A stretch of DNA of 64,000 nt, taken from NCBI GenBank assembly GCA_038227635.1, contig JBBRPT010000006.1, positions 1 to 64,000 on the forward strand, in the 5' to 3' direction. The stretch is from Leptolyngbyales cyanobacterium (GTDB lineage Bacteria; Cyanobacteriota; Cyanobacteriia; Leptolyngbyales; Leptolyngbyaceae). The position numbers and the translations under genes are program-made. The notes beneath the pieces are model-generated. The model saw nothing but the letters and a program-made list of their open reading frames with translations. It ran no database searches and was not told the DNA's origin. Below are positions 19,061 through 55,168 of the stretch, in pieces; positions within the stretch are counted from its first letter, which is position 1; every line of letters starts with the position of its first letter.

Positions 19061-19447
<387 letters not shown>

Positions 19448-29977: not shown

Positions 29978-29988
29978 GTTGTGTTCAG

Positions 29989-31095: not shown

Positions 31096-31180
31096 CTAAA
31101 AGCTGTAACCAGTTATTTGGTCAACCCGTTAATTAAAGTTGAAAAAGTCGATAAAAGTCCACCTGATTTTAAGAATAAAC

Positions 31181-31295: not shown

Positions 31296-31561
31296 GGCAC
31301 TTTTTCTGTATCGACGTTGGAAAAATAGCAGATGATAGATTCTGAGTAGAGTTGAATTTGTATCGACCTTGTCTATGTGCCTGATATTCTGACTGATTTT
31401 GACATTGAGTTGATGCTCTACCTTAGTGTGGCAATTCAGTATCAAACCGGTTCATCTGAAGCTTAGCGCTCGTGTTTACCCCAGAGGTCTTCTTACTTTT
31501 TCAGTTGACTCATTCAACTTGATCCTTCACCTAATCTCTCGTGTCAGGAGTTTTTTCATCC

Positions 31562-33301
31562 ATGTTAGAAGGATGGATTCAAATTGCATTAACGCTACTG
31601 ATTGTGATAGCAATTACTCCCTTCCTGGGAGGGTATATGGCTCGTGTCTACCTGGGAGAAAGAACGCTACTTGATCCGGTTCTCAATCCTGTCGAGCGAA
31701 TTCTTTTCAAACTGAGCGGTGTGCAAACCCGTGAAAACATGACTGGTTGGCAGTATATCAAAGCAGTGCTGTATAGCAATCTTGTGATGGCGCTGCTGCT
31801 GACCTTCATTTTGTTGAGCCAGAGGTGGTTACCCTTCAATCCAACGGCTCTCAGTACGCCAACTTGGGACACTATTCTGCATACGGTTATCTCTTTTATC
31901 ACCAACACCAATCAGCAACACTATTCTGGCGAAACTACCTACGGCTACTTTGCTCAATTTGCTGGATTGGGCTATATGTTTTTTGTCTCAGCCGCCACTG
32001 GGTTGGCAGTGGGAATTGCCTTTATTCGGGGATTGACGGGTAGACCCCTCGGCAACTTCTACGTCGATCTAACGCAATCGATCACGCGAATTTTATTGCC
32101 GATCGGGATCATTGGTACGATTATTTTTATTGCAGGTGGTGTGCCCGAAACGCTTGCTGGTCCGACTATTGTGCCAACGCTTGAAAATTCGGCGATCAGT
32201 CAGGCGATCGCCCGCGGTCCGGTAGCCCACTTTGAGATTTTGAAACAGATCGGTGAAAACGGCGGCGGTTTCTTTGCAGTTAACTCCGCTCATCCATTTG
32301 AGAATCCGAGTCCGTTTACTAACTTGATTCAGACTGTAGGAATGGTGATGATTCCCTCATCATTTATCTACACCTATGGCGTGATTGCTAACAATCGCAA
32401 ACAAGCCTGGTTAGTGTATGGCATGGTGTTGACGGTTTCGATCGTGTTCATCATATTCAACGGCATCAGCGAATATACCGGCAACCCTGCGGTGAATGCG
32501 CTGCTAGGCGGTCAGGCACCCAATTTAGAAGGGAAAGAAGTCCGGTTTGGCTGGGCACAATCTGCTTTATTCTCTGTGATCACGACGGGCACTATGACGG
32601 GTGCAGTCAATAGCTTTCATGATTCGTTCATGCCCACAGGCGGATTCGTCATGATGTCAAATATGTTCCTGCAAATCATTTGGGGCGGGCAAGGAACAGG
32701 AACGGCTTACTTATTTGCCTATCTGATTTTAGCGGTGTTTGTGACGGGTTTGATGGTCGGACGCACTCCCGAATTTTTGGGGCGCAAGATTGAAAAGCGT
32801 GAGGTCGTGCTGGCGAGCTTTTTGATCTTGCTGGTTCACCCGATCGCGATTCTGATTCCAGGCGCGATCGCCATGTCACTGCCCAGCGCACCCGATGGAG
32901 TAACGGCTCAAGGCTTCTACAATGGCATCACCAATCCTAGTTTTCACGGGTTAACTCAGGTTCTCTATGAATATGCCTCAGCCGCCGCTAACAATGGATC
33001 TGGCTTTGGAGGACTCTTAACCAGTCAACCTGCTCCGTCAGCCTTGTGGTGGAATTTGAGCGCTTCATTTAGTCTGCTCATGGGGCGCTATGTGCCGATC
33101 GTCGCTCTACTGCTGTTAGCTGATAGTATGTCGCGCAAGCAGCCTGTGCCAATGACGAGTGGAACGCTCCGTACCGATACGGGGCTGTTCACAGGCATCA
33201 CAGCAGGCGTAATTTTGATTATGGGTGCGCTGACGTTCTTCCCGGTGTTGGCACTCGGTCCGATCGCCGAAGCCTTTCAGATCGCCAAGGGCATTGGGTA
33301 A
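31562..33301 (+). CDS. kdpA: Potassium-transporting ATPase subunit KdpA
   Basis: KdpA N-terminus [33 protein letters not shown]. 10-TM channel-like subunit. AGGAG sits 12 nt upstream of the ATG at 31562. Confidence 0.9.
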
Positions 33302-33337
33302 CTCAGCCTTGAGATTGGGTATCCAGCCAGCTATATT

Positions 33338-35470
33338 TTGTCCTTTTGCCTACAGACGACAGACTCCGAATTTATGCAAACTCCACAAGATTCAGATTCC
33401 CTTCGGTCTTCCCGTGGCGGTGCACGCGACTCTCGCAGACACACTCCCAAAGCCAATATGAGCGGGTTATATCAGAGAGCCATTCGCGAAGCGTTTGTCA
33501 AACTCGACCCCCGCACTGAGGTTAAAAACCCAGTCATGTTCGTGGTTTGGGTAGGAACGATCGTGACCTTTTTCGTGACGCTTGACCCAAACTTGTTTGG
33601 CACTGTGCAGGCTGATCCCGGTCAACAACGACTGCTCAACGGGTTAATTACGTTCATTTTGTTTTTTACACTCGTCTTTGCCAACTTTGCCGAAGCCGTT
33701 GCCGAAGGGCGAGGTAAAGCCCAAGCCGATGCTCTCCGTTCAACTCGATCGGACACGATCGCCCACAAACTTTTACCTAACGGCTCGATTCAAGAAGTCA
33801 GCTCGACTGAGCTGCGACGCGGCGATCAGGTGAAGGTGGTAGCGGGCGATATGATTCCTGCCGATGGCGAGGTGATCAAAGGGATTGCCTCTGTCGATGA
33901 GTCTGCGATTACCGGAGAATCGGCTCCAGTTCTCAAGCAGCCGGGTACAGATATTATGAGTTCGGTGACTGGGGGAACGCGCATCCTCTCGGATGAGTTA
34001 ATTCTCAATGTCACGTCCGATCCGGGTCAAGGGTTTATCGACCGGATGATTGCTTTAGTTGAAGGCGCAGAACGAGTCAAAACCCCAAACGAAATCGCTT
34101 TGACGGTGCTGCTAACCGTTCTGACGCTGGTGTTTTTGATCGTGGTTGCAACCGTTTCGCCTTTGGCAAACTATGTGAGTGCACCGACGACGATCGCCAT
34201 TCTTATTTCCCTATTAGTCGCGTTAATTCCCACGACGATCGGCGGGTTATTAAGCGCGATCGGGATTGCCGGAATGGATCGGGTGGCGCAGTTCAATGTC
34301 ATTGCTACATCGGGTCGTGCTGTGGAGGCTTGTGGAGACATTAGCACCCTTGTTCTCGACAAAACCGGAACAATTACACTAGGCAACCGATTAGCAGATG
34401 AGTTCATTCCGGTTGATGGTCACACGGTTGAAGAAGTCGCCCAAATTGCTCTCGCTGCGAGTGTGTTTGATGAAACGCCCGAAGGGAAGTCGATCGTGAT
34501 TCTAGCCGAACGCAACAGTGCCAACATAGACTTTAATACCGACGATGCCAGTGGAGTCGAATTTACAGCCAGAACGCGCATGAGCGGAACGGACTTACCG
34601 CATGGCAAGGAAGTGCGTAAAGGTGCAGTGGATGCTGTTAAAGGCTTTGTGCGATCGCGCGGCGGAACGGTTTCGGCTCAGGTAGACGACGCTTACGAGC
34701 GGGTGTCTCGTTTAGGTGGAACTCCACTCGCAGTCTGCCAAGGTAGCGAAATCTATGGGGTAATCTATCTCAAAGACATTGTGAAAGCAGGTCTGCGCGA
34801 ACGGTTTGATCAACTCCGCCGCATGGGTGTAAAAACGATCATGCTCACAGGCGACAACCGCATTACTGCTTCGGTGATTGCTGAAGAAGCCGGAGTCGAT
34901 GACTTCATTGCCGAGGCGACTCCTGAAGACAAAATCGATGTGATTCGCCGAGAACAATCGGAAGGCAAACTGGTTGCCATGACCGGAGACGGAACCAACG
35001 ATGCGCCTGCTCTCGCTCAAGCAAACGTCGGCGTGGCAATGAACTCTGGTACTCAAGCCGCTAAAGAAGCCGCCAACATGGTGGATTTGGATTCTGACCC
35101 GACGAAACTGATTGACCTGGTGACGATCGGCAAGCAGCTTCTCATCACTCGCGGGGCATTGACAACGTTCTCGATCGCGAACGACATTGCAAAATACTTT
35201 GCGATCATTCCGACCATCTTCGCAGCAGCAGGGATTGGTTCTCTCAACATCATGGGCTTAAAGAGTCCACAGTCAGCGATCATTTCAGCGTTGATTTATA
35301 ATGCGCTGATCATTCCCGCTCTAATTCCATTGGCACTAAAGGGAGTGCAGTTCCGTCCGCTCACGGCAAATCAACTGCTGCGTCGTAATATCTTGATTTA
35401 TGGCATGGGTGGAGTGATTGCCCCCTTTATCGCAATCAAGATTATTGATGTGTTGATTCCACTCTCTTAG
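33338..35470 (+). CDS. kdpB: Potassium-transporting P-type ATPase subunit KdpB
   Basis: [10 protein letters not shown] phosphorylation motif, [15 protein letters not shown], and collinear similarity to E. coli KdpB. The start may be an internal ATG ([13 protein letters not shown]). Confidence 0.92.
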
Positions 35471-35517
35471 GCGTTAATCGATCGATTCATCAAGCTAATC
35501 TCTAAGATATAATCTCT

Positions 35518-40276: not shown

Positions 40277-40528
40277 TCAAATCGTCAGACTAAACGCTAC
40301 TCGATTGATGAATAATCCAATCACCACATCGGGCATCACGACCGACTTGGAAAAACAAATCGTTTTGCGAGCCATAGCGCTTCGCTCCGTCAAAGGCGTG
40401 CGCTTAATTCGCGTTCGCAACGTTAAGTGCTTTCGCTCAATCTTCTGAGTGTTGCGCTTTCCAACTGTATGGAACATGGGAGCGATCTGCCGTTCATAAG
40501 CACCCCACCCATCGCTGTAGAACTGCAT
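40277..40528 (-). pseudogene. IS1-family transposase (InsB) C-terminal remnant
   Basis: SDGWGAYE...GKRNTQKIERKHLTLRTRIKR...RKTICFSKSVVMPDVVIG matches InsB TDGWQAY...GKRYTQRIERHNLNLRQ...SFSKSVELHDKVIG. Confidence 0.65.
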
Positions 40529-40557
40529 AATCCAAAAGTAACAACATATCTAGAACA

Positions 40558-41340
40558 TTGCCGAGTGACCCGACCGAAGACGCAGCAACGCCCAATCCGT
40601 GGGTGCGAGTGCTCAACGGCAAACGAGGACTCCACATCGTCGTGCTCTACCTGATCCTGGGTTCGTGGCAGGTGCCCTGGAGTTTCTGTATCTGGCATGG
40701 CAAGGGCACTGCGAGTCCCCCTCAACTCGCCTGTAAACTCCTGGCTCATGTGCCCAAGACCCTCACGAAACGGTTTACGGTCATTGTTCTGGCAGATACC
40801 GAGTTGGGCACCGTGGAGTTTCTCACAGCCGTGCGAAAACGGCACTGGCGAGCGGTCGTTGGAATGCGCTGCACTCGTCTGATGGACACGGGCAAGCCCC
40901 TCAAGTCGCTTTACCGTCGTGGAACCCGAGAACAACAGGTACGACTCGTAGGTATGGAGATGCCGTTGACCGTCTCCTGGTTTTGGCTCAAACGCAGCGA
41001 GGGCAAGCGAGAACTGCGGTTTGTCGTCCCCACCCCCTATTCTGGCAGGGCTAATTTAAGGTCGAGAAAGAAAATCTATACCCTTTATCTTGCGTCGAGG
41101 CATTATTTGATGCTGAACGAAGACTCAAGCCTGTGGATTTTATCTGGTGACAACTAATCAGCCCTGCCTACTCTGGGGTCTACCTCGTGCGGTTAGGACG
41201 ACAACGGTGAACCATTGAGGGCTTCTTCAAAACCAGCAAACATCGCTTTGGCTAGCATAGCTTTGGACAGAAGACTCGGTTGGGCATCTATCGCTGGTTG
41301 ATTCTCTCCCTCATTGCTTACCTGCTTGCCCATTGGGTCT
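40558..41340 (+). pseudogene. IS4/IS701-like DDE transposase remnant (stop and frameshift interrupted)
   Basis: IVLADTELGTVEFLTAVRKRHWRAVVGMR. Downstream, in another frame, is IEGFFKTSKHRFG(stop)HSFGQKTRLGIYRWLILSLIAYLLAHW, a typical DDE_Tnp_1 C-terminus. Confidence 0.5.
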
Positions 41341-41912: not shown

Positions 41913-42668
41913 CTAAAAAGCGTTGGACACAACCGATTGTTCAACCTTCGATACCAACCGCAGCAAATTTTCCCCTAGAACTAGGGTTTCTTTTACCGGA
42001 GATAATCCAAGCAATCGAATTTTTTGGAGTTCAAGGGCAGGATGTAACCAAGGACCATCAGTGCCAAACAATACTTTGTGAGCACCTCCTCTTTGGACTG
42101 CTTGTGCTAAGTAATCAAACCGACGTACACCGGATGTATCGGTATAAACATTAGGAAAGCGAACAATTTGATCAATTACACGGATATGAGCCGTCCAGTC
42201 GTCTGCAAAGCTTCCTAAGTGAGGAATAATAAAGTTCACGTCAGGATATTGAGCTGCCAGCAAATCAATAATTTCAGTCTTGCCAGCGGGGTCATAAAGC
42301 AGCGGTAACCGAAACCTTTGAGCAACCTCGCAAAGTTCACGAGTGGCGGGGGCATCCAGTCGATGGGCTTTGATTCCGCAAAATCCCCATTGAATTACGG
42401 CTTGTTTAACGATCGTATGAACCCGTCCGCGATCGCGCTGAGCATGAACAAAGGCAAATCCCAAAAAACGCCCTGGATATCTGGCAATAATCCGAGCGGT
42501 ATTGGCATTCGCCTGAGCGTAATCGCTATGAAACGGAGCAAAGATCACAGTTTTATAAATGCCCACCGCTTGTGCCCGTTTCAAATACGTTGCGATCGGT
42601 GCATCGGTATCCCAAGGACCGGTTAACAAGTCGCCTTTTCCAGCATGGCAATGGCAATCGATAATCAT
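41913..42668 (-). CDS. Amidohydrolase-2 family (TIM-barrel metal-dependent hydrolase)
   Basis: N-terminal IIDCHCHAG metal-binding motif. 251 aa. 4-nt overlap with the upstream M20 gene. Confidence 0.72.
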   Translation of the reverse strand: MIIDCHCHAGKGDLLTGPWDTDAPIATYLKRAQAVGIYKTVIFAPFHSDYAQANANTARIIARYPGRFLGFAFVHAQRDRGRVHTIVKQAVIQWGFCGIKAHRLDAPATRELCEVAQRFRLPLLYDPAGKTEIIDLLAAQYPDVNFIIPHLGSFADDWTAHIRVIDQIVRFPNVYTDTSGVRRFDYLAQAVQRGGAHKVLFGTDGPWLHPALELQKIRLLGLSPVKETLVLGENLLRLVSKVEQSVVSNAF

Positions 42669-44074
42669 TGTGTATACTCCGCAAAGAAGCGAATTACAGT
42701 CTCAATACCGTGAAAGAAGTTCGGTAAACTCATCTTTTCGTTGGGAGCGTGAATATCATCATCCGGTAATCCGAATCCCAGCAGCACGATCGGCACTTGC
42801 AGCCGTCGATGGAGGTGTTCGACTAGGGGAATTGAGCCGCCGCTGCGAGTGAACACAGGGGGAATGCCCCAAGTTTGCTCAACCGCTCGAATGGCAGCCT
42901 GCATCACTGCACTCTTTTGAGGCAACAAAACCGGACGCGATCTGCCCGTAATTTTTAAGCGGCTACGGATTGCGGGATGACTCAAGGATTTCAGATGGTG
43001 TTCCAGCAGTTGGGCAATTTCGGTGGGTTCTTGATCCGGAACCAGTCGCAGACTCAATCGAGCAATTCCTCGACTGGGAATGACCGATTTCGCACCTGCG
43101 CCTGTGTAACCACCCGCTAATCCATTAATCGTCAAGGCTGGGCGACTGGTCATGCGCTCAAACAAGTCGTAGCCAGGTTCACCCCAGCCCAAGGGCACAT
43201 CAAGGTCAGCTAAGATTTGCTGGTTGCGTTTACAGGCGCAGCGAAGTTGTTGTCGTTCTGTTGGTTGGAGGTCTCGAACCTGCTGATAGAAACCAGGAAT
43301 CGCCACTTTTCCGGTGCGATCGTGCAGTCCTGCAATCATTTCGCTCAAGGCTTGCAGGGGATTCAGCACGGCTCCTCCATATCGCCCAGAGTGCAGATCG
43401 TGCTTGGGTCCGCGCACTTCTAGTTCACAGTTGAGATTGCCGCGCAGTCCATAGATGATTGAGGGTCTGCCGCGTCCTAGCATCTCGGTGTCAGAGACCA
43501 AGACCGCATTAGCTTGAAGTCGTTGCACTTGTCGATCGAGAAACGCAGCTAAGTTCGGACTATTGATTTCCTCTTCCCCTTCTAGCCACACTTTGACATT
43601 GATCGGCAAGGTTCCAGTTGTTCGCAAGTAGCTCTCGATCGCTTTTAAGTGGATAAATAACTGTCCTTTGTCGTCGCTGGCTCCACGAGCAAACAAGCTG
43701 TCTCCCACTATGGTCGCTTTGAACGGATGCGATCGCCATTCATCGATTGGATCAACAAGCTGTACATCATAATGCCCATATAGCAATAACGTTGGCTTTC
43801 CGGTTGCCATTAACCAATCTGCATAGACACTGGGTGCGCCGCCATTCACGCTTGGAATCACTTGAACACGATGCAGACCAATTTCTGCTAAGTGTTGCGC
43901 TAACCACTGGGCACAGGCTTTGATGTCTTTTCGGTGCTGAGGAAGTGCAGAAATAGTAGGGAAAGCGATCAGTTCAGACAGTTGGGAGAGCCAGCGCGAT
44001 CGCATTTCTGGTTGCTGGCTGTAGAGCAGGGGTGCAATTGCTGCTGGTGAAGAGACAAGCATCGCTTTCGCCAA
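42665..44074 (-). CDS. M20 family metallopeptidase (dipeptidase / ArgE-DapE-like)
   Basis: LLLYGHYDVQ...GASDDKGQ motifs. 469 aa. Confidence 0.85.
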   Translation of the reverse strand: MAKAMLVSSPAAIAPLLYSQQPEMRSRWLSQLSELIAFPTISALPQHRKDIKACAQWLAQHLAEIGLHRVQVIPSVNGGAPSVYADWLMATGKPTLLLYGHYDVQLVDPIDEWRSHPFKATIVGDSLFARGASDDKGQLFIHLKAIESYLRTTGTLPINVKVWLEGEEEINSPNLAAFLDRQVQRLQANAVLVSDTEMLGRGRPSIIYGLRGNLNCELEVRGPKHDLHSGRYGGAVLNPLQALSEMIAGLHDRTGKVAIPGFYQQVRDLQPTERQQLRCACKRNQQILADLDVPLGWGEPGYDLFERMTSRPALTINGLAGGYTGAGAKSVIPSRGIARLSLRLVPDQEPTEIAQLLEHHLKSLSHPAIRSRLKITGRSRPVLLPQKSAVMQAAIRAVEQTWGIPPVFTRSGGSIPLVEHLHRRLQVPIVLLGFGLPDDDIHAPNEKMSLPNFFHGIETVIRFFAEYTQ

Positions 44075-44137
44075 GAGTTAACTTTACTGTGAACAATCAC
44101 TGTTATGTCAATCGTCTACTCGGAATTGTCGAGATCA

Positions 44138-45265
44138 TTAAAGAGGTCGATCTAGATTTGGATAGTCTCGATCAAGGTTCCAATCGCACTGACCCCGGTA
44201 ACAACCTGTGCCAACAGCGATTAGCATCCGCCGGTGCTGTCGTTCCTCTTTCAGCTTGTTCCCCGCCCGATTTGCAGCTTCATTGGCGATCGCAATTAAC
44301 TTCTCCTGCTCAGAGGACAATCCTCGGATTCGAGCCATAAACGCCTGCTCTTTTTTACGACCCAAACCATCGCCTGTATGAACATCAAAGATCATCGACA
44401 GCCCCCGAATCGTTCGTAATCCGAGTCGTCGAGTGATGGCTACGCAGGTTGTGATTCTGCCGCTCACGTCTTCTATTTGCAGACGACAGTAATCTGGATC
44501 GGAACACAGGCGAAGTAAGGTACTACTCCAGCGAAAACAAAGCTTTTCAGCACTTGCTTGTCGCACTGCATCCCTAGGTGGCAAAGCAATCAGGTTCTTC
44601 AACTTCTCGGTATCTGCTCCGAAGAACTCTCGTAACCGCCCAGTTTGACGCTCAAATTTTGTGAGCATTGCTTGTAGAGTCCCAGCCGCTAGATTCCACT
44701 GAATCATGCCCATCGAGATGCCATCGACCTCAGACACCCGACACCCAAACTCTCTGTTGTTTTCAAACCGAGTGGTAATTCTCAAAGCAATCAACTCAGC
44801 TTCGCTTAGTTTCGTTGGAGGCAGACACGCTACTTGCCCACCAACATTACAACTCCGTTTACGCTTGCGGGAGCGCTCTGCAATAAAATTGGCAGCATCT
44901 CTCACTTGTCCAGTTCTCTGTAAGTCACCCACCGGAGGCGGCAAAACCCTTGTGATAACAACTTTACGAGCGTAATCAATCCGAGGTATATTCACCATTG
45001 ACAAGAATGGAGTACGATTTGTCCACAAAGCATCGAGTGTTTGAGGTGCTAAACCATCGAGCACACGCAGCATTTCGTACATATTCAAGCCATTCAAGTT
45101 GAGATAAGCACTTCTCCAATCACTGACTCGTACAGCACTCTCAAAAGCTCGACGAACTGAGCTAGGTGTATATTCAAACTCTAGTAGTTTCCATTCTGCT
45201 TCTAATGGTTGATCGCGATATCTAACTGAAACGGGTTCAAATAGCCATTGTGTGGTTCGACTCAT
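44138..45265 (-). CDS. Uncharacterised protein G of the minus-strand block; N-terminal motif MSRTTQWLFEPVS
   Basis: About 375 aa from the ATG at 45265. No confident domain; the FGCRVSEVDGISMGMIQW segment suggests a possible glycoside-hydrolase/lysozyme-like region. Confidence 0.5.
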   Translation of the reverse strand: MSRTTQWLFEPVSVRYRDQPLEAEWKLLEFEYTPSSVRRAFESAVRVSDWRSAYLNLNGLNMYEMLRVLDGLAPQTLDALWTNRTPFLSMVNIPRIDYARKVVITRVLPPPVGDLQRTGQVRDAANFIAERSRKRKRSCNVGGQVACLPPTKLSEAELIALRITTRFENNREFGCRVSEVDGISMGMIQWNLAAGTLQAMLTKFERQTGRLREFFGADTEKLKNLIALPPRDAVRQASAEKLCFRWSSTLLRLCSDPDYCRLQIEDVSGRITTCVAITRRLGLRTIRGLSMIFDVHTGDGLGRKKEQAFMARIRGLSSEQEKLIAIANEAANRAGNKLKEERQHRRMLIAVGTGCYRGQCDWNLDRDYPNLDRPL

Positions 45266-45293
45266 GGTTTTATTAGCTCGAAAATAGAATAAT

Positions 45294-46178
45294 TCACAGC
45301 GATCTAGAAGCAATGATCGTGAATAAGGCATTAAAGAGCCTGTTCAAAGTGTCGCGGTTCTTGAGAGATTGTTCTGTTAAATCGCCCCCCTTTGCCCGGC
45401 GAGCGAACTCTAACAGAAAGCGCCGAGTGACTTGATCGAACTCGCCAGTTTCTGAAATGCTTGCTCCTAATAGACTGTTCAGCGATTCTTGAACAAAGAC
45501 TAGTGTTGATTTTTGCAGCGGATTTCGAGGTCGTCCCCGATTCATGTCACAGTGAAAATGATCGCGGTGATCGGAGCGGTGATAGTCGATCACAGTAGTA
45601 AAAGAGAGCCTGAGACAGGCATTCATGCGGCGCAAGATTGCTCTTTCTGCCGGATTGCGGAAGTTATGAACGATCGTTTCTCGATTGGAGCTAGAAGAGA
45701 TGCCCGATTGTTGCCAGCGCAGCCCAGCAATGTCGATCGCATCGCCAAAAGAATGATTGCTCAATGTGTCTGTGTTACTGATACATCGACATAGATAAGA
45801 GCCGAGGGTTAGAATCGCTTCGATCGGTAAGCCAAATTGAGTCATATTGTTAACAAAGGTACTCAACGCTGTTTCAACTGATGGAATAAACCGCTGCGTT
45901 CTAGGGCGCAATCGCTTGCTTACCACAATCAAGGGTGTGCTTGGATCTTTCCGAACTGCATCTACATACTCAAAAGGGATACCATTTACGGCTTGGACAC
46001 ACAGCAAATTTGGAATAGCTGGACAAACTTTAGGCGTTTTACAGCGTAGCTTTGTTGTGCTGGCAGCTTCAGAACAAGTGCGACGGGCTGAAGTCGGAAC
46101 TAGCTCCCATTCAGTTTCGCCAAGCCACCCATCGGTTCGAGTCGGTATTTCAAACTGCAAAGGATTTTGCTGCCTCAT
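45294..46178 (-). CDS. Peptidase M15-like (LAS zinc D,D/L,D-peptidase) protein H; N-terminal MRQQNPLQFEIP
   Basis: SNHSFGDAIDI matches the M15 SxHxxGxAxD zinc-binding motif. DHRDHFHCD matches the second His motif. The ATG overlaps the TGA of upstream gene F (ATGA). Confidence 0.6.
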   Translation of the reverse strand: MRQQNPLQFEIPTRTDGWLGETEWELVPTSARRTCSEAASTTKLRCKTPKVCPAIPNLLCVQAVNGIPFEYVDAVRKDPSTPLIVVSKRLRPRTQRFIPSVETALSTFVNNMTQFGLPIEAILTLGSYLCRCISNTDTLSNHSFGDAIDIAGLRWQQSGISSSSNRETIVHNFRNPAERAILRRMNACLRLSFTTVIDYHRSDHRDHFHCDMNRGRPRNPLQKSTLVFVQESLNSLLGASISETGEFDQVTRRFLLEFARRAKGGDLTEQSLKNRDTLNRLFNALFTIIASRSL

Positions 46179-47125
46179 CGGGTCACCTCTGTTGAGTTCT
46201 TCAGAAATGGAGTCGCTTTGATACGGGTTTCCCAATAAGTAATCGGGACTCTGTTGTGATCGCCTGTTGTTGATCGATTTACCGAGACGTTAGAGAGTTT
46301 TTGCCGCTTTGCATATATTTGTAAACTGGTTGCCAGAGGTGCAGTTTGACTGTTGGCAATGTAGTAAATGAAGAGATTACTGGTGGGATTCCGCTTTGCC
46401 CAACTTCCCCAGCCCGTATCATCTCCAGTGTTATACGTACAATCAAATCCCCAGCATTCACGGATTTTGCTTGCATAAGTAGCTTTAGAAAGCGCGATCG
46501 TTCTCATCGGTAAACCGCCCCCTGAATGACAGGCAAGAATCAGATTACCAAGGCTGAGCGGTTGATCAAACTGCATGGAAGGCGCGTAATACGTCCGAAT
46601 TGCTGCTAACACCTGATCAATGTAAGCATCGAAGCCACTGGCTTGAGTGAGATTGCCGGATTCCGATCGCGACCCTAAAGTTGGAGCGACGAGAATAGCA
46701 TTTTTACTGCTGGCATTGACTCCTTCTCGAAATGCAAAGAACGGATAGAACTGTCGATTCCAATATTGGTCGATCGTCAAGTTCGTTGGATAGTAGCCAG
46801 GAGCCGGAGATCGACCGCGCTGAACTGGAGTGCGATGATGACCCTGGAGGTAGAGAATCAGATCGACCTGAGGTGTAAACCGATAGTTAGCAGGCAGAAA
46901 AACCCCGGTCATGGGTTGCGGACAGACTTTAGTGCGATCGCGCTTTGTGCTACATCCAAGATTGATGTTGAGATAGAGAGTTGAGAAGAGGGGTTGAGAT
47001 TCTGACCGAATCAAGGATGGAGCAGCTTGAGTCGGAGATTCAAATAGCCCATTCTGCTCAAAGTTTAGATAAGAAGTCGGGCTGCGTGAAGGAGCCTCGA
47101 ACATCCACTGAGTTGAACGATTCAT
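46175..47125 (-). CDS. Putative alpha/beta-hydrolase-like protein F; N-terminal MNRSTQWMFEAPS
   Basis: ILACHSGGG is a nucleophile-elbow-like Sm-x-S-x-Sm. GGAG sits 9 nt upstream of the start. Confidence 0.5.
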   Translation of the reverse strand: MNRSTQWMFEAPSRSPTSYLNFEQNGLFESPTQAAPSLIRSESQPLFSTLYLNINLGCSTKRDRTKVCPQPMTGVFLPANYRFTPQVDLILYLQGHHRTPVQRGRSPAPGYYPTNLTIDQYWNRQFYPFFAFREGVNASSKNAILVAPTLGSRSESGNLTQASGFDAYIDQVLAAIRTYYAPSMQFDQPLSLGNLILACHSGGGLPMRTIALSKATYASKIRECWGFDCTYNTGDDTGWGSWAKRNPTSNLFIYYIANSQTAPLATSLQIYAKRQKLSNVSVNRSTTGDHNRVPITYWETRIKATPFLKNSTEVTR

Positions 47126-47154
47126 ACAGTACTCCTAGCGAGGATAGATGAGTT

Positions 47155-48048
47155 CTATCTCATGACATTTGGGGCAGGCATCATCCCGTTCGATCGTGCA
47201 AATACCGGATCGGGTCGTGTTCCACGAGGAGGAGGACCTGGCTGGTAAATATTGCGCGGGGGTGGAGTGGGACGGCTGATCCGCATTCCTTCTTCGCTGG
47301 AGATCCATTCTTCAGAGTATTCGGCGATGCGGTAGAGCAACGCTTCAAAGTCAGTGCGGTTCTTCTTGAGGACGAAGGGTTCGGCTAACCAACGGATGAT
47401 TTCTCGTCCAGCAACCGCCATCCGGTTCATCGTACTGGCGTGAACGGATTGACCAAAGTATTGCCACAAAACTAGTTCAATCATTTCCCAGGCATTAGCA
47501 GCCCCAAACTGGGCGCGAACATCGGGAGCATCTAGAACCTTAAAGGCTTCCGCTAATGCTTGACTGGTTTCTACCCGCAGCACATTGATATAGCCGTAAG
47601 AAGAGTTCTTCAAGTTGTTGCGTAAATCGAGTCCGGTTCGACGGACGATCGCCATGGAACCAAAGGTCGGATCAGTGGCATTTTGGCGAATCACTTCGCT
47701 AATTCGTTTGTCGCGCCAGAACTTTGCGGTTTCGCTGATAAAGTGAGTGAAAAGTCCATGAAACTCTGGATTGGCACGAGCGCCCGGTCCCGGATCGCGC
47801 CCATAGCCTAAGACCCGCGTATAGGCCCGACGGCGATCGCCCTGTTGGTAGCGCAAAAGGTTGTGCTTATCAAAGCGGTAGAGTCCGTAAGCCCCTTCGC
47901 CGCTGGAAATTCGCAAGGTTCCGGCTCGGAATAGCTCTTGCAACTTGTGCATCACTTTAAACACACCCAAAAATTCATGGATAGCGATGTAGTAGAGGTC
48001 GCCTGCCGCAAGGATGCGATCGCTGGTCACCGTATCGTCGTAATCCAC
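47155..48048 (-). CDS. Uncharacterised protein E (GTG start; probably the 3' part of a frameshifted longer gene)
   Basis: The frame stays open upstream to 48120 without an ATG (..GGLADLIGLGNTAPTNLGATQVSSGIVDYDD). ORF 48117..48311 ends in a G5 run where one extra G would fuse the two frames. Confidence 0.5.
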   Translation of the reverse strand: MDYDDTVTSDRILAAGDLYYIAIHEFLGVFKVMHKLQELFRAGTLRISSGEGAYGLYRFDKHNLLRYQQGDRRRAYTRVLGYGRDPGPGARANPEFHGLFTHFISETAKFWRDKRISEVIRQNATDPTFGSMAIVRRTGLDLRNNLKNSSYGYINVLRVETSQALAEAFKVLDAPDVRAQFGAANAWEMIELVLWQYFGQSVHASTMNRMAVAGREIIRWLAEPFVLKKNRTDFEALLYRIAEYSEEWISSEEGMRISRPTPPPRNIYQPGPPPRGTRPDPVFARSNGMMPAPNVMR

Positions 48049-48116
48049 AATGCCGCTGGAAACCTGGGTTGCTCCTAAATTGGTGGGTGCCGTGTTGCCT
48101 AACCCGATCAGGTCGG

Positions 48117-48311
48117 CTAGTCCCCCATCCGGCGGAACGCCTTTGCCATTTGGGCTTCATCAAATTTGCGAACCTGATCATCCACCGTTCGGTTCAGCAC
48201 TTCTGCCAATTGAGGATTGGCAACCAACTCTGGACCCAGTTGTTCAATGGTGTTTTGCAGGAGCGCAGCAATACGATCGTTGCGCTGGTCGTAATCTCTG
48301 GTGTTCGGCAT
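48117..48311 (-). CDS. Small ORF E-prime (64 aa), likely the N-terminal part of protein E separated by a homopolymer frameshift
   Basis: MPNTRDYDQRNDRIAALLQ...AFRRMGD, followed by a stop within GGGGGAC TAG. Confidence 0.4.
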   Translation of the reverse strand: MPNTRDYDQRNDRIAALLQNTIEQLGPELVANPQLAEVLNRTVDDQVRKFDEAQMAKAFRRMGD

Positions 48312-48424
48312 ACGTTTGTTCCTATTCCTGATCTAAATATCTCTGAGTGCTGCTGAGGGAAGGGCATCGCGATCGCCAACCGGATCACCATGCGAAGCCT
48401 TAATTGTTTCGGTTCACGATTGCT

Positions 48425-49954
48425 CTAACTCTCCCCAGGTGGACTAGTCGGGGGAACCGTGCTACCCACTCCCAGATCTGCCAGTGTATCGAGTTGGAAG
48501 AGCAACTCACTCAAGGTTTGCTGCACCCGCTCAAAAGACAGCACTCTGTCTAGCAGTAAGCCCTTGGAGGGGTCGCTTTTAAGGGTGGACAAGACAATCC
48601 CAATCACCCAGAACAAGGTATCTGCCTGGTCGGTGACAAAATCTAAGCCAAACTGACCTGAAGCGGACAAGATAGATGGCGCTTCCAGGGTGGCAAACCG
48701 CTCAACCCACTCGTTGAAATCATTGACGGTGATGTCCGGTAGCAGCAAGCTAAACGTGGTGGGACTGGAGAACAACGACAGGCTGATGTCGATCGCGTTG
48801 GGAGAGTTGATCGCGTTGGAAGGGTTAGGTCTCGTCCGAGGAGATCCTAAGATCGAGAACAGTGCGGTATCCGATCGCCGCTCGCTGGCAGTAAATCCGA
48901 TCGAATCCATTGCCGCCATCAGGCTAGTATTGCTATCTGAAATCACGGGCAACATGATGTAAGACCGCGACAGCCGCTCACTATAGCGCCCTGTTACGTT
49001 TGTCTCCACGTCATTGGTTACAGCGAACTGCTCAAAAATTGTTCTTAATGTACCTGCATAGTTTTTCAGTAACTCAAAGCCTGCAACTTGTGTTTCGTCT
49101 GACAGTGTGACTGGGAAAACCTCTGTGCCGTTTCTTTGCCCTCGGAATCCACCCCGATCGACCAACCGTGCTTGTTCGCCCAATTGAATAATCGAACCAT
49201 CTAGCGTGTTGAGATACGTTTCCACCCGTTCTCGACGGGGTTCATCAATGCGTCCAAATTCATCAACTAAAGTGTTGATTTGCGATCGAATCAACGCCCG
49301 TAATGCTTCCACCGCATCAATATCCGCTATGGGATCAAAGGGTTGCAGTGCCTCCAAAACCCGCAGGGCATCTGCCGCAATAATGCTTGTCTGACGATAG
49401 AGATTTGCCTGTTCCACAGACAACTGACCCACGCCACTGCTATTCGGTGGTGCTGACCTGTAACCGGCGGCTGCATCATTGCCGAGACTGTCAGGTGAAT
49501 AGTAGCCGTTGCCCACGGTGGAGTAATTGCCGCTTCCGTTCAGGGAAACGATACTGCGAGTGGGCGTCATCATCACTTTGCCATGAGCATCCGTTGGGAA
49601 AGCACTGTTCAAGGCATTAACAAATCCATCATATCCGCGTCCCGGTGTTCGCCCTAAAACCTGAGTCAGCGCCCGTTCTACCTGCTGAGTTAAGGCATTT
49701 GCGTTTCCACTGGCACTAGAGCGAGAGGAGCCATTGTCGTAGATGGTCGGTTCATTGCCTGCCGATCGTCCTAAGATTTGGGCAATTTGAGCCAACTGCT
49801 TGGGAATGGCTTCTGTAAGCTGTGGCTGTAAAAAAAGGCTGTTCAGGAGAACCTGACGCATTTCTTGCAATTGGTCTCTTTGTCGTAGATTCTGAAGCTG
49901 CCCATCGTTGAGCACCTCACCGTTGATCAGCGTTCCGAAAACTGGAAAAGCCAT
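48425..49954 (-). CDS. Uncharacterised protein D (509 aa)
   Basis: Long ORF co-oriented within the block. Gly/Ser/Asn-rich central region. No motif recognised. Confidence 0.55.
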   Translation of the reverse strand: MAFPVFGTLINGEVLNDGQLQNLRQRDQLQEMRQVLLNSLFLQPQLTEAIPKQLAQIAQILGRSAGNEPTIYDNGSSRSSASGNANALTQQVERALTQVLGRTPGRGYDGFVNALNSAFPTDAHGKVMMTPTRSIVSLNGSGNYSTVGNGYYSPDSLGNDAAAGYRSAPPNSSGVGQLSVEQANLYRQTSIIAADALRVLEALQPFDPIADIDAVEALRALIRSQINTLVDEFGRIDEPRRERVETYLNTLDGSIIQLGEQARLVDRGGFRGQRNGTEVFPVTLSDETQVAGFELLKNYAGTLRTIFEQFAVTNDVETNVTGRYSERLSRSYIMLPVISDSNTSLMAAMDSIGFTASERRSDTALFSILGSPRTRPNPSNAINSPNAIDISLSLFSSPTTFSLLLPDITVNDFNEWVERFATLEAPSILSASGQFGLDFVTDQADTLFWVIGIVLSTLKSDPSKGLLLDRVLSFERVQQTLSELLFQLDTLADLGVGSTVPPTSPPGES

Positions 49955-49993
49955 TGTTACTAACCTCTGCTGATGTATAGAGTCATCGTTCTG

Positions 49994-51364
49994 TTACCGC
50001 CTGCCGAGAATGCGGTAGAAATTATCGGTAATGGTTTGAGGAGTGGCAAGTTGGCGATCGAGGGCAAACCTCGCCGCACTGATCATAAAACGGACGGGAA
50101 TGGTACCGGGATCTTGTCCGGCGGCAAGTCGCTGTCCTGCCAATTCCACCATCGCCATTTGCTGAGGTCCGAAGGGGATTGCCTGGGCCAGAGACTTGTT
50201 GCCAAACTGACGATACGGTTGAAAAACCATCGTATCTACGACCATTTCGGCAGCCGGATAAAAGGTTTTCATGAAATCAGGGGGAATGTCGTTGGGCGTG
50301 ACTCTGGGATAGAGCCGTTGCCAGATCCGCGTCAGATCCGCCGCCATTTTGTCAAACCCCATGCGGCGCAGCAAAATCAGGTTGATCAGCGTTCGCAGAT
50401 AGGGCGTGGGATGGACGGACATGCCGCTAAATTGAACCGTGCTGGCGGGCGATCGCCCCACCACATCCATCAACGATTCCACCGCAGCCGGACCACCCAA
50501 AACCAGAGCAAACATATCTGCCATGGTTTCTTTGTGCCAGCGTGCCCAGACCTGGGCGACCTGGGCAGGAAATTTACCTTCGGTGGTCAGGCGTTGATAG
50601 AGGCGGGCAGGGATTTCTTCCCACAATCCCAAATCTGCCTGAAGATTATGCGACACCTCATGCAGAATGCTAGAGAGTGCCCAGACATTATCTAATCGAT
50701 GTTGCGGCAACATGATCAGCGGAAACGGATTGGGATTGCGTCGCAGACGCATAATCGGCACCCCCCGACGAAAGGTTGCCGGACTAAAGCCACTGTTGGC
50801 ATAGCTAAACGGCAGCAAACTGGGCGTGGGTTGAGCCGTTCCCAGACCTACGTAGAGGTCTTCATAGCAATTGGCACAGATGCGATCGACCGATCGTAAG
50901 CGTTCGCCAAAATTAGAGAGCCGCTGGATGAATAAATCGAAGTAAAAATCCCAAATGCCTTCGACATAAAGCACCTGGCTGCCCACCTTCTGCTTGCGCT
51001 CTAACAACACTTGCAGGCGGCTGGTGGTGGGTTCTCGGCGGGCAGCGGCAGCGGCAGCTTCCACCCAGCGAGACATTTCGACTAATTGACTGCGGAATTG
51101 GTCAATGAATCGATTCACCGCTTCAATATGTGCCTCGCTTGGAGCCGCCACCCCGCTGCCAAACTCATCATTACGAAAAGGACGCAGCGATTTGGCATGG
51201 CGGGTAAGGTTAATCGACTGAATATTCAGCCAGTTATCCAGCAGGAGCCGTTCACTGGCGGTGGTTGCTCCTTTCATCACCGTTGCAGTCGCTTGCGCTG
51301 GGGCAGCAACTTTAGAATCTGAAGGCGAGTGTTGAGGCGGGGCAGAAGAGTTTGCCATGATCAC
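49994..51364 (-). CDS. Uncharacterised protein C with HExxH zinc-metallopeptidase-like motif
   Basis: ILHEVSHNLQADLGLWEE: HExxH with a downstream Glu. 456 aa. Confidence 0.55.
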   Translation of the reverse strand: MIMANSSAPPQHSPSDSKVAAPAQATATVMKGATTASERLLLDNWLNIQSINLTRHAKSLRPFRNDEFGSGVAAPSEAHIEAVNRFIDQFRSQLVEMSRWVEAAAAAARREPTTSRLQVLLERKQKVGSQVLYVEGIWDFYFDLFIQRLSNFGERLRSVDRICANCYEDLYVGLGTAQPTPSLLPFSYANSGFSPATFRRGVPIMRLRRNPNPFPLIMLPQHRLDNVWALSSILHEVSHNLQADLGLWEEIPARLYQRLTTEGKFPAQVAQVWARWHKETMADMFALVLGGPAAVESLMDVVGRSPASTVQFSGMSVHPTPYLRTLINLILLRRMGFDKMAADLTRIWQRLYPRVTPNDIPPDFMKTFYPAAEMVVDTMVFQPYRQFGNKSLAQAIPFGPQQMAMVELAGQRLAAGQDPGTIPVRFMISAARFALDRQLATPQTITDNFYRILGRR

Positions 51365-51422
51365 GGCTTCCTGGGGGTCAAAGATTCGTGGCGTTTAGAA
51401 CGCATAGAACGCAGAACAGGGG

Positions 51423-52583
51423 TTAGCGACCTGCCGCAGCACGGCGGCTGGCACACGCCGGACACTGACCATTTCTAGTGGCGGTGGCACGGCGGGGGTT
51501 GGGAGGTGCCGTGCGTTGACGCAGAACGGCATTCCGCACGATCGCCCGTTGCACCAGTTGGGGATTGCTCAACACACGCTGGCTAGCGGCTGCCATTGCC
51601 TTGACTGCCAGAGGACCTGTGATCGGCTGACCGGATTTAGAAGCCGCTTTCAGCGTGGCGATCGTCCGTCGTTGAATGGTGGGTACGGTTCGCAGCAGTT
51701 GCCGCCCGATCGGACCTTGTTGGCGTAACGTCTTCACAAGTTGACTATTTGCCTGTGCCAAAATTGGCATCACCGGACGCAGTGCCCGTCGTCCGCCCAT
51801 AATCGTAATCGTGATCGGCAAGGCTGCGCCCAGGGTAGATTCTGCTTCGGCTTCGGTAGCGGCTTCTGCCGATTGCGCTGCTAGAAATTCGGTCAGTGCC
51901 GCTTCATGGGCGACTTCTGTATTTCCAACTTCGGCTTCCGATTCATTGGTGCCAAAGAATTCTGACTCCATCTGTCCCGCTTCCATTTCCCCTTCTTGAA
52001 CCAGGGCACTGGTGAGTTTGGCGGCAAGGGGTCCTGCGATCGGACCAATGCCCGGAATCAAGGCAGCGAGTTTACCCGCTACGATCGGAGCAAATCGCTT
52101 TGCTAGAGGAGCCGCTACTTTTGCAATCTTACCAATGCCTCGTTTGACCGCACGAAACGCTTTCTTGAAGAAATACTCACCCTCATCTTCGGGATTGGAG
52201 TAAGGATTACTGTAGTGGGCTGCTTCGTGGCTGGTTTCCCATTCATCCTCAAACTCAGGATTGGAGTAAGGATTGGAGTAAGGATTGCTGTAGTGGGCTG
52301 CTTCGTGGCTGGTTTCCCATTCATCCTCAAGCTCAGGATTGCTGTAGTGGGCTGCTTCGTGGCTGGTTTCCCATTCATCCTCAAGCTCAGGATTGCTGTA
52401 AGGATTGCTGTAATGGGCAGCTTCATGGCTGGTTTCCCATTCATCCTCAAACTCAGGATTGCTGTAGTGGGCAGCTTCGTTTTCCCATTCATCCTCAAAC
52501 TCAGGATTGCTGTAAGGATTGCTGTAATGAGCTGCTTCATGGGAAGCAGGAGCCTCAAACATTGCTTGATGTTGCGTTACCAT
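51423..52583 (-). CDS. Acidic tandem-repeat protein B (paralog of A); N-terminal MVTQHQAMFEAPAS
   Basis: Six repeats of EAAHYSNP(YSNP)nE[FL]EDEWETSH. Then a cationic stretch FFKKAFRAVKRGIGKIAKVAAPLAKRFAPIVAGKLAALIPGIGPIAG. Then an Arg-rich C-terminal domain. Confidence 0.6.
   Translation of the reverse strand: MVTQHQAMFEAPASHEAAHYSNPYSNPEFEDEWENEAAHYSNPEFEDEWETSHEAAHYSNPYSNPELEDEWETSHEAAHYSNPELEDEWETSHEAAHYSNPYSNPYSNPEFEDEWETSHEAAHYSNPYSNPEDEGEYFFKKAFRAVKRGIGKIAKVAAPLAKRFAPIVAGKLAALIPGIGPIAGPLAAKLTSALVQEGEMEAGQMESEFFGTNESEAEVGNTEVAHEAALTEFLAAQSAEAATEAEAESTLGAALPITITIMGGRRALRPVMPILAQANSQLVKTLRQQGPIGRQLLRTVPTIQRRTIATLKAASKSGQPITGPLAVKAMAAASQRVLSNPQLVQRAIVRNAVLRQRTAPPNPRRATATRNGQCPACASRRAAAGR
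52190..52560. repeat. Tandem 51-66-bp coding repeats inside gene B
   Basis: Repeated CTCAGGATTGCTGTA(AGGATTGCTGTA)GTGGGCTGCTTCGTGGCTGGTTTCCCATTCATCCTCAA units. ORFs 52115..52558(-) and 52215..52589(+) are off-frame readings of these repeats. Confidence 0.85.
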
Positions 52584-52664
52584 TCGTAAAACTCTCCTTG
52601 TGAATTAGGGTGGGAGTACGTGTCAAGGGTTGAACCCCGATCGGGGCATTCCTGCTGCTTCAGG

Positions 52665-53555
52665 TCAAGCGGCAGCAACGGCTCGTTGTCGGATCACCGC
52701 GTTGCGAATCATTGCCTGCCTGACCATTTGGGCGTTCCCAAAAACGCGGGCAGCATGAGCCGCTATGACTCGTCGAACCAGCGTTGCCGTGATCGAACGA
52801 CCCAATCGCGGTGCCGCTCGTAAACTTGCGATCGTTCGCCGTAGAATCGTGGGAATCAGTCGGAGTAAGCGTCGCCCTGCCGTACCGCGTCGATGCAGTA
52901 AATGGACTAAATGGGCAGTTGCGGCAATCAACACAGGCATCAGCGATCGCAGCCGTCGTCTGCCCCCCGCACTCCGCACTGCGATCGGAACCACCGTGCC
53001 AATTAAAGCCGATGCTTCACTGGGATTGCGACTGTGGCTCGCTTCTGCCGCCAATACCTCGGTCAAAGCAGCTTCTTGAGCGGCTTCTGAATCACTCGCT
53101 TCGGCTTCTGCTGCATAAAGACCAAAGAATTCTGCTTCCAGATACTCTGTTTCCAGATCACCTTCTTGAAGCAAAATGCTGATGAATCTGCGCGCCATCG
53201 GAGTTGAAACTAACCCCGATCGAGGAGTCGCTCCAAGCAGCGTTCGGGCGACGATCGGAGCTAGATGTTGGGCAAACGGTGCAGTTACTCTCGCAACTTG
53301 CCGAATGCCTTGAAGGGCTTGTCTAAAGGAAAACTCTGCTTCCCACTCACTTGCCATTTCGGTATGAGGGTAATGCGAAGCTTCCTGGGTTTCCCATTCG
53401 TATTCGTCCCCCCGATAGGAGTAAGGTCGAGAATCGTGAGTTGTTCTGAACATCTCCCATTCATCGGGTCGTTGCGGATGAGAATAGTGAGTTGCTTCAA
53501 ACAGGTTATTGCTATTACCTAGTCCTTTTCCATTAGTATTCGCGTATCCACTCAT
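52665..53555 (-). CDS. Acidic-repeat protein A (paralog of B), first gene of the block
   Basis: N-terminal degenerate HYS.P...DEWE repeats (…NNLFEATHYSHPQRPDEWEMF…). Shares conserved APFAQHLAPIVA, LQEGD...EAEFFG and Arg-rich C-terminal domain with B. Confidence 0.55.
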   Translation of the reverse strand: MSGYANTNGKGLGNSNNLFEATHYSHPQRPDEWEMFRTTHDSRPYSYRGDEYEWETQEASHYPHTEMASEWEAEFSFRQALQGIRQVARVTAPFAQHLAPIVARTLLGATPRSGLVSTPMARRFISILLQEGDLETEYLEAEFFGLYAAEAEASDSEAAQEAALTEVLAAEASHSRNPSEASALIGTVVPIAVRSAGGRRRLRSLMPVLIAATAHLVHLLHRRGTAGRRLLRLIPTILRRTIASLRAAPRLGRSITATLVRRVIAAHAARVFGNAQMVRQAMIRNAVIRQRAVAAA

Positions 53556-54754: not shown

Positions 54755-55168
54755 ATGGATGCTAATAATGACGAAAATCTGAGTTCAGATCCTCAAAATT
54801 TTCTGTCTTTAGACCAAGAAATTTTGCTGAACTGTTTAGTGAAAAAGGTTTCTCAAGCTGAACCTTTGAAACGTCTTCAAGCGGCTGAAGAAACGGTTAA
54901 CGAAATCATAATCGAATCTGACATTGATGGAACGCATTATTATCTTGTTCGGTGTACACCAAAGTCTGCTCTCCAAGTTAATTTGAGTCCGCGTGAGTTT
55001 GCGATCGCTCGCCTAGTTGCTCAAGGGTTTCCAAACAAATGTGTTGGTAATCAGCTCAACATTAGCCCTTGGACTGTTGCGACTCATGTCCGTCGTATTT
55101 TTGCTAAGCTAAGCGTCAATTCAAGGACGGCAATGGTATCAAAGCTGATGGAAGCAGGTTTGTTGTAG
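54755..55168 (+). CDS. LuxR-family HTH transcriptional regulator (no receiver domain)
   Basis: C-terminal LSPREFAIARLVAQGFPNKCVGNQLNISPWTVATHVRRIFAKL. Confidence 0.7.
   Translation: MDANNDENLSSDPQNFLSLDQEILLNCLVKKVSQAEPLKRLQAAEETVNEIIIESDIDGTHYYLVRCTPKSALQVNLSPREFAIARLVAQGFPNKCVGNQLNISPWTVATHVRRIFAKLSVNSRTAMVSKLMEAGLL

Follow-up and report, generated by a model that had tools for sequence, protein, structure and literature searches.

Why should several enzymes that have little else in common, encoded side by side, begin with the same short peptide? The question is raised by a gene array in a 64,000-nucleotide stretch of DNA from a Leptolyngbyales cyanobacterium (positions 1 to 64,000 of contig JBBRPT010000006.1, assembly GCA_038227635.1; hereafter the window), in which a sequence-only reading had picked out the N-terminal motif TQW[ML]FE[AP] on at least five proteins, here called A, B, F, G and H (Table 1). 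Comparison of sequences has established that the motif belongs to a peptide-level, module-specific N-terminal leader, common to the repeat proteins A and B and to a variable set of wall-lytic enzymes. To judge by these comparisons, the leader looks like an address label that links unrelated lytic enzymes to a protein machinery. The proposal of a shared recognition, processing or assembly leader is thus well supported, by confinement to one operon, by conservation of the peptide and by occurrence on at least 15 types of enzyme lacking export signals. The analogies offered with it, to extracellular contractile injection systems (eCIS), type VI secretion systems (T6SS) and encapsulins, gained no support, since neither the cluster nor the list of Pfam families for the rest of the window contains a detectable component of these systems.

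F, G, H and B, on the minus strand, have the N-termini reported for them at the coordinates given, and A has its degenerate motif NNLFEATHYS, which lies 17 residues in. All four fit M-x4-[QP][WLA][LMQ]FE[API]P. Shuffled sequence gives 0.74 ± 0.87 matches to a strict six-frame regular expression; the window itself gives five, four of which are these N-termini. The stop codon of F overlaps the start of H (ATGA), Shine–Dalgarno-like boxes (AGGAG/GAGGTG) stand upstream of F and H, and the NCBI gene calls have the same starts for both. In the first 23 homologues of F, all of cyanobacterial type, the motif lies within about 30 residues of the called start in 22, and 18 of these have the form M-x4-..[LM]FE; among at least 120 homologues, nearly all the cyanobacterial ones start M-x4-QWLFEAP, most of them with (E)WLFEAP again about 25 residues on. 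The concern that wrongly chosen starts had created the motif can be set aside, because it is kept in orthologues and because the spacing is regular: of 107 non-identical tagged open reading frames (ORFs), 75 have Phe as residue 9, and another 12, which are B-type proteins that start MAMFEAP, have it as residue 4. The DNA strings given for the motif in F and G, which differ by synonymous changes, had been quoted correctly. At 28 distinct QWLFEAP-coding sites all six Leu, all four Pro, both Gln and both Glu codons are used; the use of every Leu and Pro codon indicates selection on the peptide, and conservation at that level is confirmed.

Two observations concern the calling of tags. In Stenomitos, the annotated start of an Amidase_2 gene (L001 7092–7811; MPATTAPD...) skips an in-frame upstream ATG that gives MKLQHQWLFEVP, so that public annotations sometimes miss the leader. 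Outside the cluster, a 545-aa acidic coiled-coil protein (window positions 11676–13313, plus strand) starts MMSEAENSNNNPSLFESVPP; its PSLFESVPP has the wrong spacing and was rejected as a weak chance match.

The motif is real as reported but it is not the whole of the tag. On sequence comparison it is the first half of an acidic bipartite leader of about 35–45 residues, LFEAP ... E-W/F-E near residue 34. The consensus of 35 cyanobacterial cases is M-[KN]-[TRK]-Q-x-Q-W-L-F-E-A-P-x-x-S-E, in which F9 and E10 are invariant and P12 occurs in 32. Lineage variants keep the LFEAP core: it appears as QW-LFEAP in cyanobacteria, as PP/PV/PS-LFEAP in soil contigs whose E protein is close to a Ktedonobacteraceae protein and as A-LFEAP in one high-GC contig. 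The core is often followed by x2-HE-A-x-HYxNPY and then by E-W/F-E; in the enzymes, residues 13–80 contain [DE][WF][DE] at 18 times the density of the remaining sequence, and its median position is 34. Net charge per 60 aa is −1.5 in the leader and +2.6 in the mature parts. After its tag, B has five to six tandem units (HEAAHYSNPYSNPE-FEDEWE) and its repeat reads MFEAP-ASHEAAHYSNPYSNPE-FEDEWE-...; the unit FEAP..HEAxHYSNPY..EWE is common to the A/B repeats and the enzyme leaders. Since B is the same unit in tandem, the leader of an enzyme corresponds to one copy of the A/B repeat.

Where else does the leader occur? One genome from each of 185,579 species was scanned with the DNA pattern ATG-N12-CARTGGYTNTTYGARGCNCC, which encodes QWLFEAP and for which we estimate, from its degeneracy, about four chance matches. 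Seventeen loci were found, of which three are short chance ORFs in non-cyanobacteria; the 14 genuine ones (13 named cyanobacteria and one bin with the same cluster) all lie in the same operon, with the order A/B, C (HExxH), in some cases X, D, E, 0–6 tagged genes, an M20 dipeptidase and an Amidohydro_2 protein. Co-occurrence with a particular machinery, which had been put forward as a check, is thus clearly seen, every genuine genome-wide match falling in one operon. The complete Stenomitos chromosome and a 2.45-Mb Phormidesmis contig each have only two matches, both in the cluster. Neighbouring genes that the pattern did not pick are also tagged, with six tagged genes in a row at one locus.

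A scan of metagenomes with E as bait gave 80 further loci with the same synteny. When a start codon was required no more than 10 residues upstream, the cluster yielded 75 occurrences of the motif (52 just downstream of E and 23 upstream, in the A/B genes), and the 1,238 other ORFs of these loci yielded none (0 of 1,035 on the opposite strand, 0 of 203 distant). In the genome and metagenome scans together, the leader occurs only on genes inside the operon. Among 55 loci with both E and M20/Amidohydro_2, 17 have nothing between them; the other 38 have 76 ORFs in this position, 59 of them tagged, about seven more carrying the variants LFAAP, LFEAS or LYKAP, and the remainder mostly fragments or insertions. 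C, D, E and the Amidohydro_2 protein are never tagged, and neither is the M20 protein of the window. In one lineage (L031, L032, L051, L095) the M20 gene starts MEASNTMFESVYTT, loosely tag-like with MFESV at residues 7–11; this 'NTMFESV' start was rejected as a tag, being confined to that lineage and absent from the window's M20.

The cluster itself is found in filamentous cyanobacteria, in Ktedonobacteria-like and high-GC soil lineages and in Paraburkholderia; strains that bear it include Stenomitos frigidus ULC029, Elainella saxicola E1 and Nostoc sp. TCL26-01. E is absent from the viral contigs of IMG/VR. The Paraburkholderia replicon holds the core only, namely two A-like proteins, C, X, D, E, M20 and Amidohydro_2. 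In two distant soil clusters (L002 and L004), C, enzymes of the F and H types, M20 and Amidohydro_2 recur, and other proteins stand in place of D and E; sigma-54 genes and an activator lie alongside, and the enzymes of these clusters begin with acidic, aromatic stretches of the EWE type. These core-only and distant clusters imply that the enzymes are optional additions to an older core, whose primary clients are A and B. Two further features of individual lineages may be mentioned. In Stenomitos frigidus, a basic in-cluster protein of 113 aa (L001 7886–8227, equivalent to L011 4222–4629) ends ...KLWLFEVPF*, with the tag-like motif at the C-terminus; it may be the remnant of a decayed tagged gene or may represent a different use of the motif. 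In soil, Ktedonobacteria-like loci (L032–L035, L095), a conserved gene pair upstream of A/B encodes proteins of about 420 aa (MDS.P..EQ...LLERGL.C..QGR) and about 125 aa (SIIVKCWYD...LQVVRTDT), which may be lineage-specific regulators or further components.

The nature of the tagged proteins was assessed by comparing 92 of them with Pfam. The families found are PG_binding_1 (13 proteins), VanY (seven), Peptidase_M74 (five), Amidase_2 and CHAP (four each), Glyco_hydro_25, Peptidase_M15_4 and Peptidase_M23 (three each) and DUF2272 and Extensin-like_C (two each), with single cases of Muramidase, SLT, Phage_lysozyme2, a lipase of the LCAT type, OmpA with DUF4056 and a beta-lactamase-like protein. 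Pfam recognises no domain in about half of the tagged proteins. The tag is thus on at least 15 Pfam-distinct types of enzyme which, to judge by their domains, would form a near-complete kit for every class of peptidoglycan bond. The domain of F (CHSGGG), which its sequence suggests is probably a serine hydrolase, is fused in homologues to PG_binding_1/3, VanY, DUF2272 and OmpA domains, and homologues of G are fused to DUF2272 or CHAP. No immunity-like genes were seen between the enzyme genes. It had been held that the proteins downstream of the motif are unrelated to one another; this is wrong for A and B, which are paralogues at 45% identity.

A Sec signal has, within the first 30 residues or so, an n-region with positive charge and behind it a hydrophobic h-region of 7–15 residues, and a Tat signal has S/T-R-R-x-F-L-K before a hydrophobic stretch. 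No protein of the cluster has a 19-residue Kyte–Doolittle window above 1.6, and the N-termini are polar and acidic; in A, B, F, G and H, the first 40 residues contain neither an RR motif nor an h-region. The 11 cluster proteins of the window lack transmembrane segments, signal-like N-termini and hydrophobic segments. Hydropathy and inspection for twin arginines therefore agree with the earlier statement that the motif proteins have neither a Sec nor a Tat signal.

The core proteins themselves are of no described kind. A–E have no match in Pfam, NCBIfam or PADLOC and no sequence relative in the PDB; scans of nine proteins (A–G, with H) against Pfam, NCBIfam and PHROG found only Extensin-like_C/M15 in H and PHROG families of unknown function in G and, weakly, in B, the sole such match among A–E. 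None of the nine belongs to a PADLOC (anti-phage defence) family. No description of the motif or the cluster was found in a full-text literature search; the cluster is so far undescribed, and no curated family covers A–E. In A-type orthologues a degenerate 'xFE[AS][AT]HY.NPE' lies some 15 residues from the start. Most loci have a B orthologue upstream of C; after the repeats, B has a Lys-rich amphipathic stretch and then a Gly/Pro-rich hydrophobic one, with acidic flanks, and an Arg-rich C-terminal domain. In C, which is present also in the distant soil clusters, H235-E236-x-x-H239, E279 and D283 are invariant in nine aligned sequences, some of them only 21–23% identical; their retention at this distance makes C a plausible peptidase of the gluzincin type. 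X, of about 230–320 aa, lies between C and D in many loci (L001, L016, L017, L023, L026, L031–L035, L045 and others), has no match in Pfam or NCBIfam and is lacking in the window.

D is the most variable core member (24–79% identity). Its AlphaFold model (predicted local distance difference test score, pLDDT, 72.9) is a bundle of long helices with a beta-hairpin at 387–404 and has generic bundle matches but no specific structural relative. A pore-former of the ClyA type, with a hairpin between long helices, was considered for D and rejected: the hairpin is variable and not hydrophobic in orthologues, and MakA was matched only at E = 1.9. E is the most conserved (57–93% identity across phyla, and 78% between cyanobacteria and the Ktedonobacteraceae protein); clustering of its family at 90% identity gives 3,174 clusters, and at 50% there are 821 representatives. 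The AlphaFold model of E is all-helical at low confidence (pLDDT 42.6, from an alignment of 33 sequences with 74–90% identity); the family is too conserved for the homologues listed (at least 120) to be informative. Some relatives of D carry Ig-like Big_1 domains and one long relative of E carries PKD domains. Matches of C, D and E to PDB sequences, in single-sequence and profile searches, were spurious, designed helical repeats only, and a 712-aa protein of L002 that was considered as a relative of E was rejected on comparison. The M20 protein matches the NCBIfam dipeptidase NF006053 (516 bits, cut-off 441) and its gene is syntenic in most loci. In a single gene call of 801 aa from the representative search (P0372), an E-like region is fused to Amidohydro_2-like and M20-like regions; this is either a frameshift-merged call or a natural fusion and, if natural, would tie E functionally to both hydrolases.

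Table 1. Genes of the array and its divergent neighbour, with the position and sequence of the leader where present (positions in the window; aa, amino acids)
Gene	Coordinates	Strand	N-terminus and tag	Product
A	52665–53555	−	LFEAT at 53490–53504	296 aa; paralogue of B; acidic N-terminus with degenerate tag and EWE motifs, basic C-terminal domain
B	51423–52583	−	ATG at 52583; N-terminus MVTQHQAMFEAPAS; tag MVTQHQAMFEAP at 52548–52583	386 aa; tag, tandem units, Arg-rich C-terminal domain
C	49994–51364	−		456 aa; HEVSH
D	48425–49954	−		509 aa; core protein
64-aa ORF	48117–48311	−		upstream part of E
E as called	47155–48048	−		297 aa; whole gene 47155–48311, normally about 385 aa
F	46175–47125	−	ATG at 47125; N-terminus MNRSTQWMFEAPS; tag at 47090–47125; second copy (LFESP) at 47033–47047	316 aa; tagged enzyme with putative serine-hydrolase domain
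H	45294–46178	−	ATG at 46178; N-terminus MRQQNPLQFEIPT; tag MRQQNPLQFEIP at 46143–46178; TEWE 10 residues after tag (residues 23–26)	294 aa; tagged enzyme of Extensin-like_C / Peptidase_M15_4 type
G	44138–45265	−	ATG at 45265; N-terminus MSRTTQWLFEPVS; tag MSRTTQWLFEPV at 45230–45265, then EAEWKLLEFEY	375 aa; tagged protein, C-terminal part matches phrog_30036
M20 dipeptidase	42665–44074	−		untagged, conserved end-piece of operon; Pfam M20 and M20_dimer
Amidohydro_2 protein	41913–42668	−		untagged; conserved last gene of operon
LuxR-family (GerE) regulator	54755–55168	+		divergent to array

In the window, the minus-strand genes of Table 1 form one tight array (41913–53555). The block extends beyond the range given for the motif, 45220–52583: it reaches 41913 and so takes in the M20 dipeptidase and Amidohydro_2 genes, the second of which overlaps the stop of the first by 4 nucleotides. 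E had been read as two genes, of 64 and 297 aa; it is one gene, split by a 1-nucleotide indel where a single A is missing from a run near 48160 ('gcccaaa|tggc', region 48048–48311). An independent read assembly (P0511, SRR19962015) has an intact E of 385 aa, identical on both sides of the missing A, and the split probably reflects an error of assembly or sequencing, or variation between strains, and not a true pseudogene. The LuxR-family gene is a possible local regulator, and only a candidate as a member of the cluster. Just downstream of the cluster, at 40277–41157, there are overlapping ORFs on the two strands that, by eye, resemble decayed fragments of transposases or insertion sequences and could mark a mobility boundary. 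The region 18000–35500 encodes Ser/Thr kinases with WD40 or TPR repeats, a class A penicillin-binding protein (Transgly and Transpeptidase) and KdpA/B/C with a KdpD-like protein, an ordinary chromosomal context. Outside the array the ORFs of the window are housekeeping genes, and their listed Pfam families (the top 25) include none from a secretion or contractile system.

What might such a leader do? On balance, the sequences incline us to the view that it docks to a core protein, that C probably removes it and that the module gathers and holds the enzymes and jointly releases or activates them. In such a scheme the leader would be a short linear docking motif; the best candidate for its receptor is E, because only E (and, less so, C) is as conserved across phyla as the motif. 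C, with its HExxH, is the candidate leader peptidase. Hydrolases of the cell wall would be gathered in the cytoplasm together with the multivalent, membrane-active-looking A and B, kept latent and then released or activated together. Several points weigh against this. Docking and cleavage of the leader are predictions from sequence, as any export or assembly would be, and the model of E is too poor to point to a binding site. None of the proteins of the cluster is recognisable as an ATPase, a membrane channel or other membrane protein, or a shell (HK97-like) protein, so the scheme offers no route for the enzymes across the cytoplasmic membrane to the cell wall. Nor does it account for the M20 dipeptidase and the Amidohydro_2 protein. 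Moreover, core-only clusters, including that of Paraburkholderia, have no hydrolases, and their A-like proteins carry EWE repeats without LFEAP, which is thus not essential to the module. A larger claim can also be made, tentatively and with somewhat less than even expectation, that the operon specifies a new protein machine (an assembly, particle or release device) without homology to known secretion or contractile systems or compartments. Its clients would be marked out by some 12 transferable N-terminal residues, which may also need the EWE half, and the machine would deliver or unleash a whole kit of wall-degrading enzymes in several bacterial phyla.

The same observations can be read in other ways. 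An unlikely but serious alternative is that the operon is a cassette for self-lysis or programmed death, in which A and B resemble holins or antimicrobial peptides and the leader is mainly an inhibitory propeptide and not a docking label. Endolysin-like enzymes would wait in the cytoplasm until C cut them all at once on a signal, giving synchronous lysis, with phage infection, differentiation or starvation as candidate triggers. The enzymes do lack export signals, as do canonical phage endolysins; the amphipathic and hydrophobic stretches of B, the opposite charge of leader and mature parts, the missing immunity-like genes and the invariable presence of a protease-like gene all suit such a device, as do the adjoining regulators (LuxR in the window, sigma-54 with its activator in L002 and L004). 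However, the cluster has no PADLOC match and is not on viral contigs, and the hydropathy of A and B reaches only 1.57, below the usual threshold for transmembrane segments. A plain propeptide would leave unexplained the five to seven tandem units in A and B and the need for D, E, X, M20 and Amidohydro_2, and it is hard to picture how a disordered N-terminus of 12 residues could inhibit some 15 different folds.

We think it rather improbable that the leader is instead a true secretion signal, served by a transporter encoded elsewhere in the genome or by an unrecognised one formed from D, E and X. The hydrolases, helped by A and B, would then be exported against the walls of other bacteria, in competition or predation, and M20 and Amidohydro_2 would consume the released peptides. 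With its amidases, muramidases, endopeptidases and one lipase, the cargo is similar to sets of antibacterial effectors, many of its members have peptidoglycan-binding domains, and the Big_1 and PKD domains on some relatives of D and E are typical of extracellular proteins or particle surfaces. Yet no membrane, ATPase or secretin component was found in or adjoining the cluster, in the window or in the loci whose flanks were inspected; cognate immunity genes, normal for interbacterial effectors, are missing; and the internal copies (the second in F, the repeats of A and B) fit a binding motif better than an N-terminal translocation signal. Least of all do we credit an artefact or a nucleic-acid feature, be it mis-called starts, a recent duplication of 5' ends or a conserved element of the RNA or DNA, for instance a translation-initiation region. 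The genes do lie side by side and recombination could copy their 5' segments, but the free use of codons, the retention of the motif in orthologues across phyla at a fixed distance from Met to Phe and its absence from all the control ORFs effectively refute this explanation.

If the leader is a client label, it can be set beside known ones. In phage T4, the capsid targeting sequence (CTS) is a 10-residue N-terminal propeptide ending (L/I)-x-E, which is cut inside the prohead by the prohead serine protease. Both it and the present motif are tags of about 10 residues at the extreme N-terminus of highly diverse, otherwise unrelated proteins. The CTS docks the diverse internal proteins to the assembly core and is then cut off (PMC3012670, PMC9026906); its processing is set by residues 8 and 10 (PMC9026906), which are here a near-invariant L and E (M-K-T-Q-x-Q-W-L8-F9-E10). 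Scans of Pfam and PHROG gave no capsid, portal or gp21-type prohead protease, however, and the cluster is not on viral contigs; the candidate protease is of the HExxH kind and the cargo consists of wall hydrolases, not anti-restriction proteins. The CTS is the closest formal analogue, and the likeness of form may be convergent; as the cluster has no capsid or gp21-type protease, we claim it as an analogy only.

The peptides of encapsulins and microcompartments likewise place a short terminal sequence on diverse enzymes next to a conserved core gene, with a disordered linker between. The resemblance here is one of logic only, the tag being on 59–66 of the 76 genes between E and M20/Amidohydro_2; there is no match to an HK97-fold or bacterial microcompartment shell in Pfam, NCBIfam or PHROG, D is modelled as a helical bundle, and the model of E, though all-helical, is too poor to discount any fold. 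Lytic enzymes are not known as cargo of encapsulins. Payload signals of eCIS, such as the Photorhabdus virulence cassettes (PVC), and T6SS markers (MIX and others) are common N-terminal regions on heterogeneous toxins that cluster with their apparatus, and such cargo is expected beside genes for sheath, tube, baseplate, spike and AAA+ proteins. The families detected in the cluster and those listed for the window include none for sheath, tube, baseplate, VgrG or PAAR proteins, immunity genes are missing, and the present motif is far shorter and sharper. With the dockerin–cohesin pairs of cellulosomes there is the likeness of many polymer-degrading hydrolases that share one module for docking into a multi-enzyme complex; here, however, the module is a linear motif of about 12–45 residues and not a folded domain, A and B repeat tags and not receptors, and all components lack signal peptides. 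Cassettes of holin and endolysin, and protease-activated bacterial gasdermins, also combine signal-less hydrolases, a possibly membrane-active protein and a protease-like gene. Unlike these, a cluster here has up to six hydrolases, A and B have no transmembrane helices, there is no match to lysis families in PADLOC or PHROG, and those systems have no common N-terminal tag. The logic of a terminal tag on heterogeneous cargo is thus known from several systems; that the machinery itself is categorically new is possible, though we would not count on it.

A true client signal would mean a new and widespread bacterial way of handling lytic enzymes without an export signal. The cluster holds five conserved protein families of unknown function, one of which, E, alone comprises more than 3,000 sequence clusters; as the clients are now known, the function of this core is directly testable. 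If the reading of the leader as a client signal is right, it would provide a very short portable tag, to be tried for the loading of foreign proteins as the T4 CTS and the PVC signals have been, and a straightforward way of recognising new cell-wall hydrolases, and lipases, from sequence.

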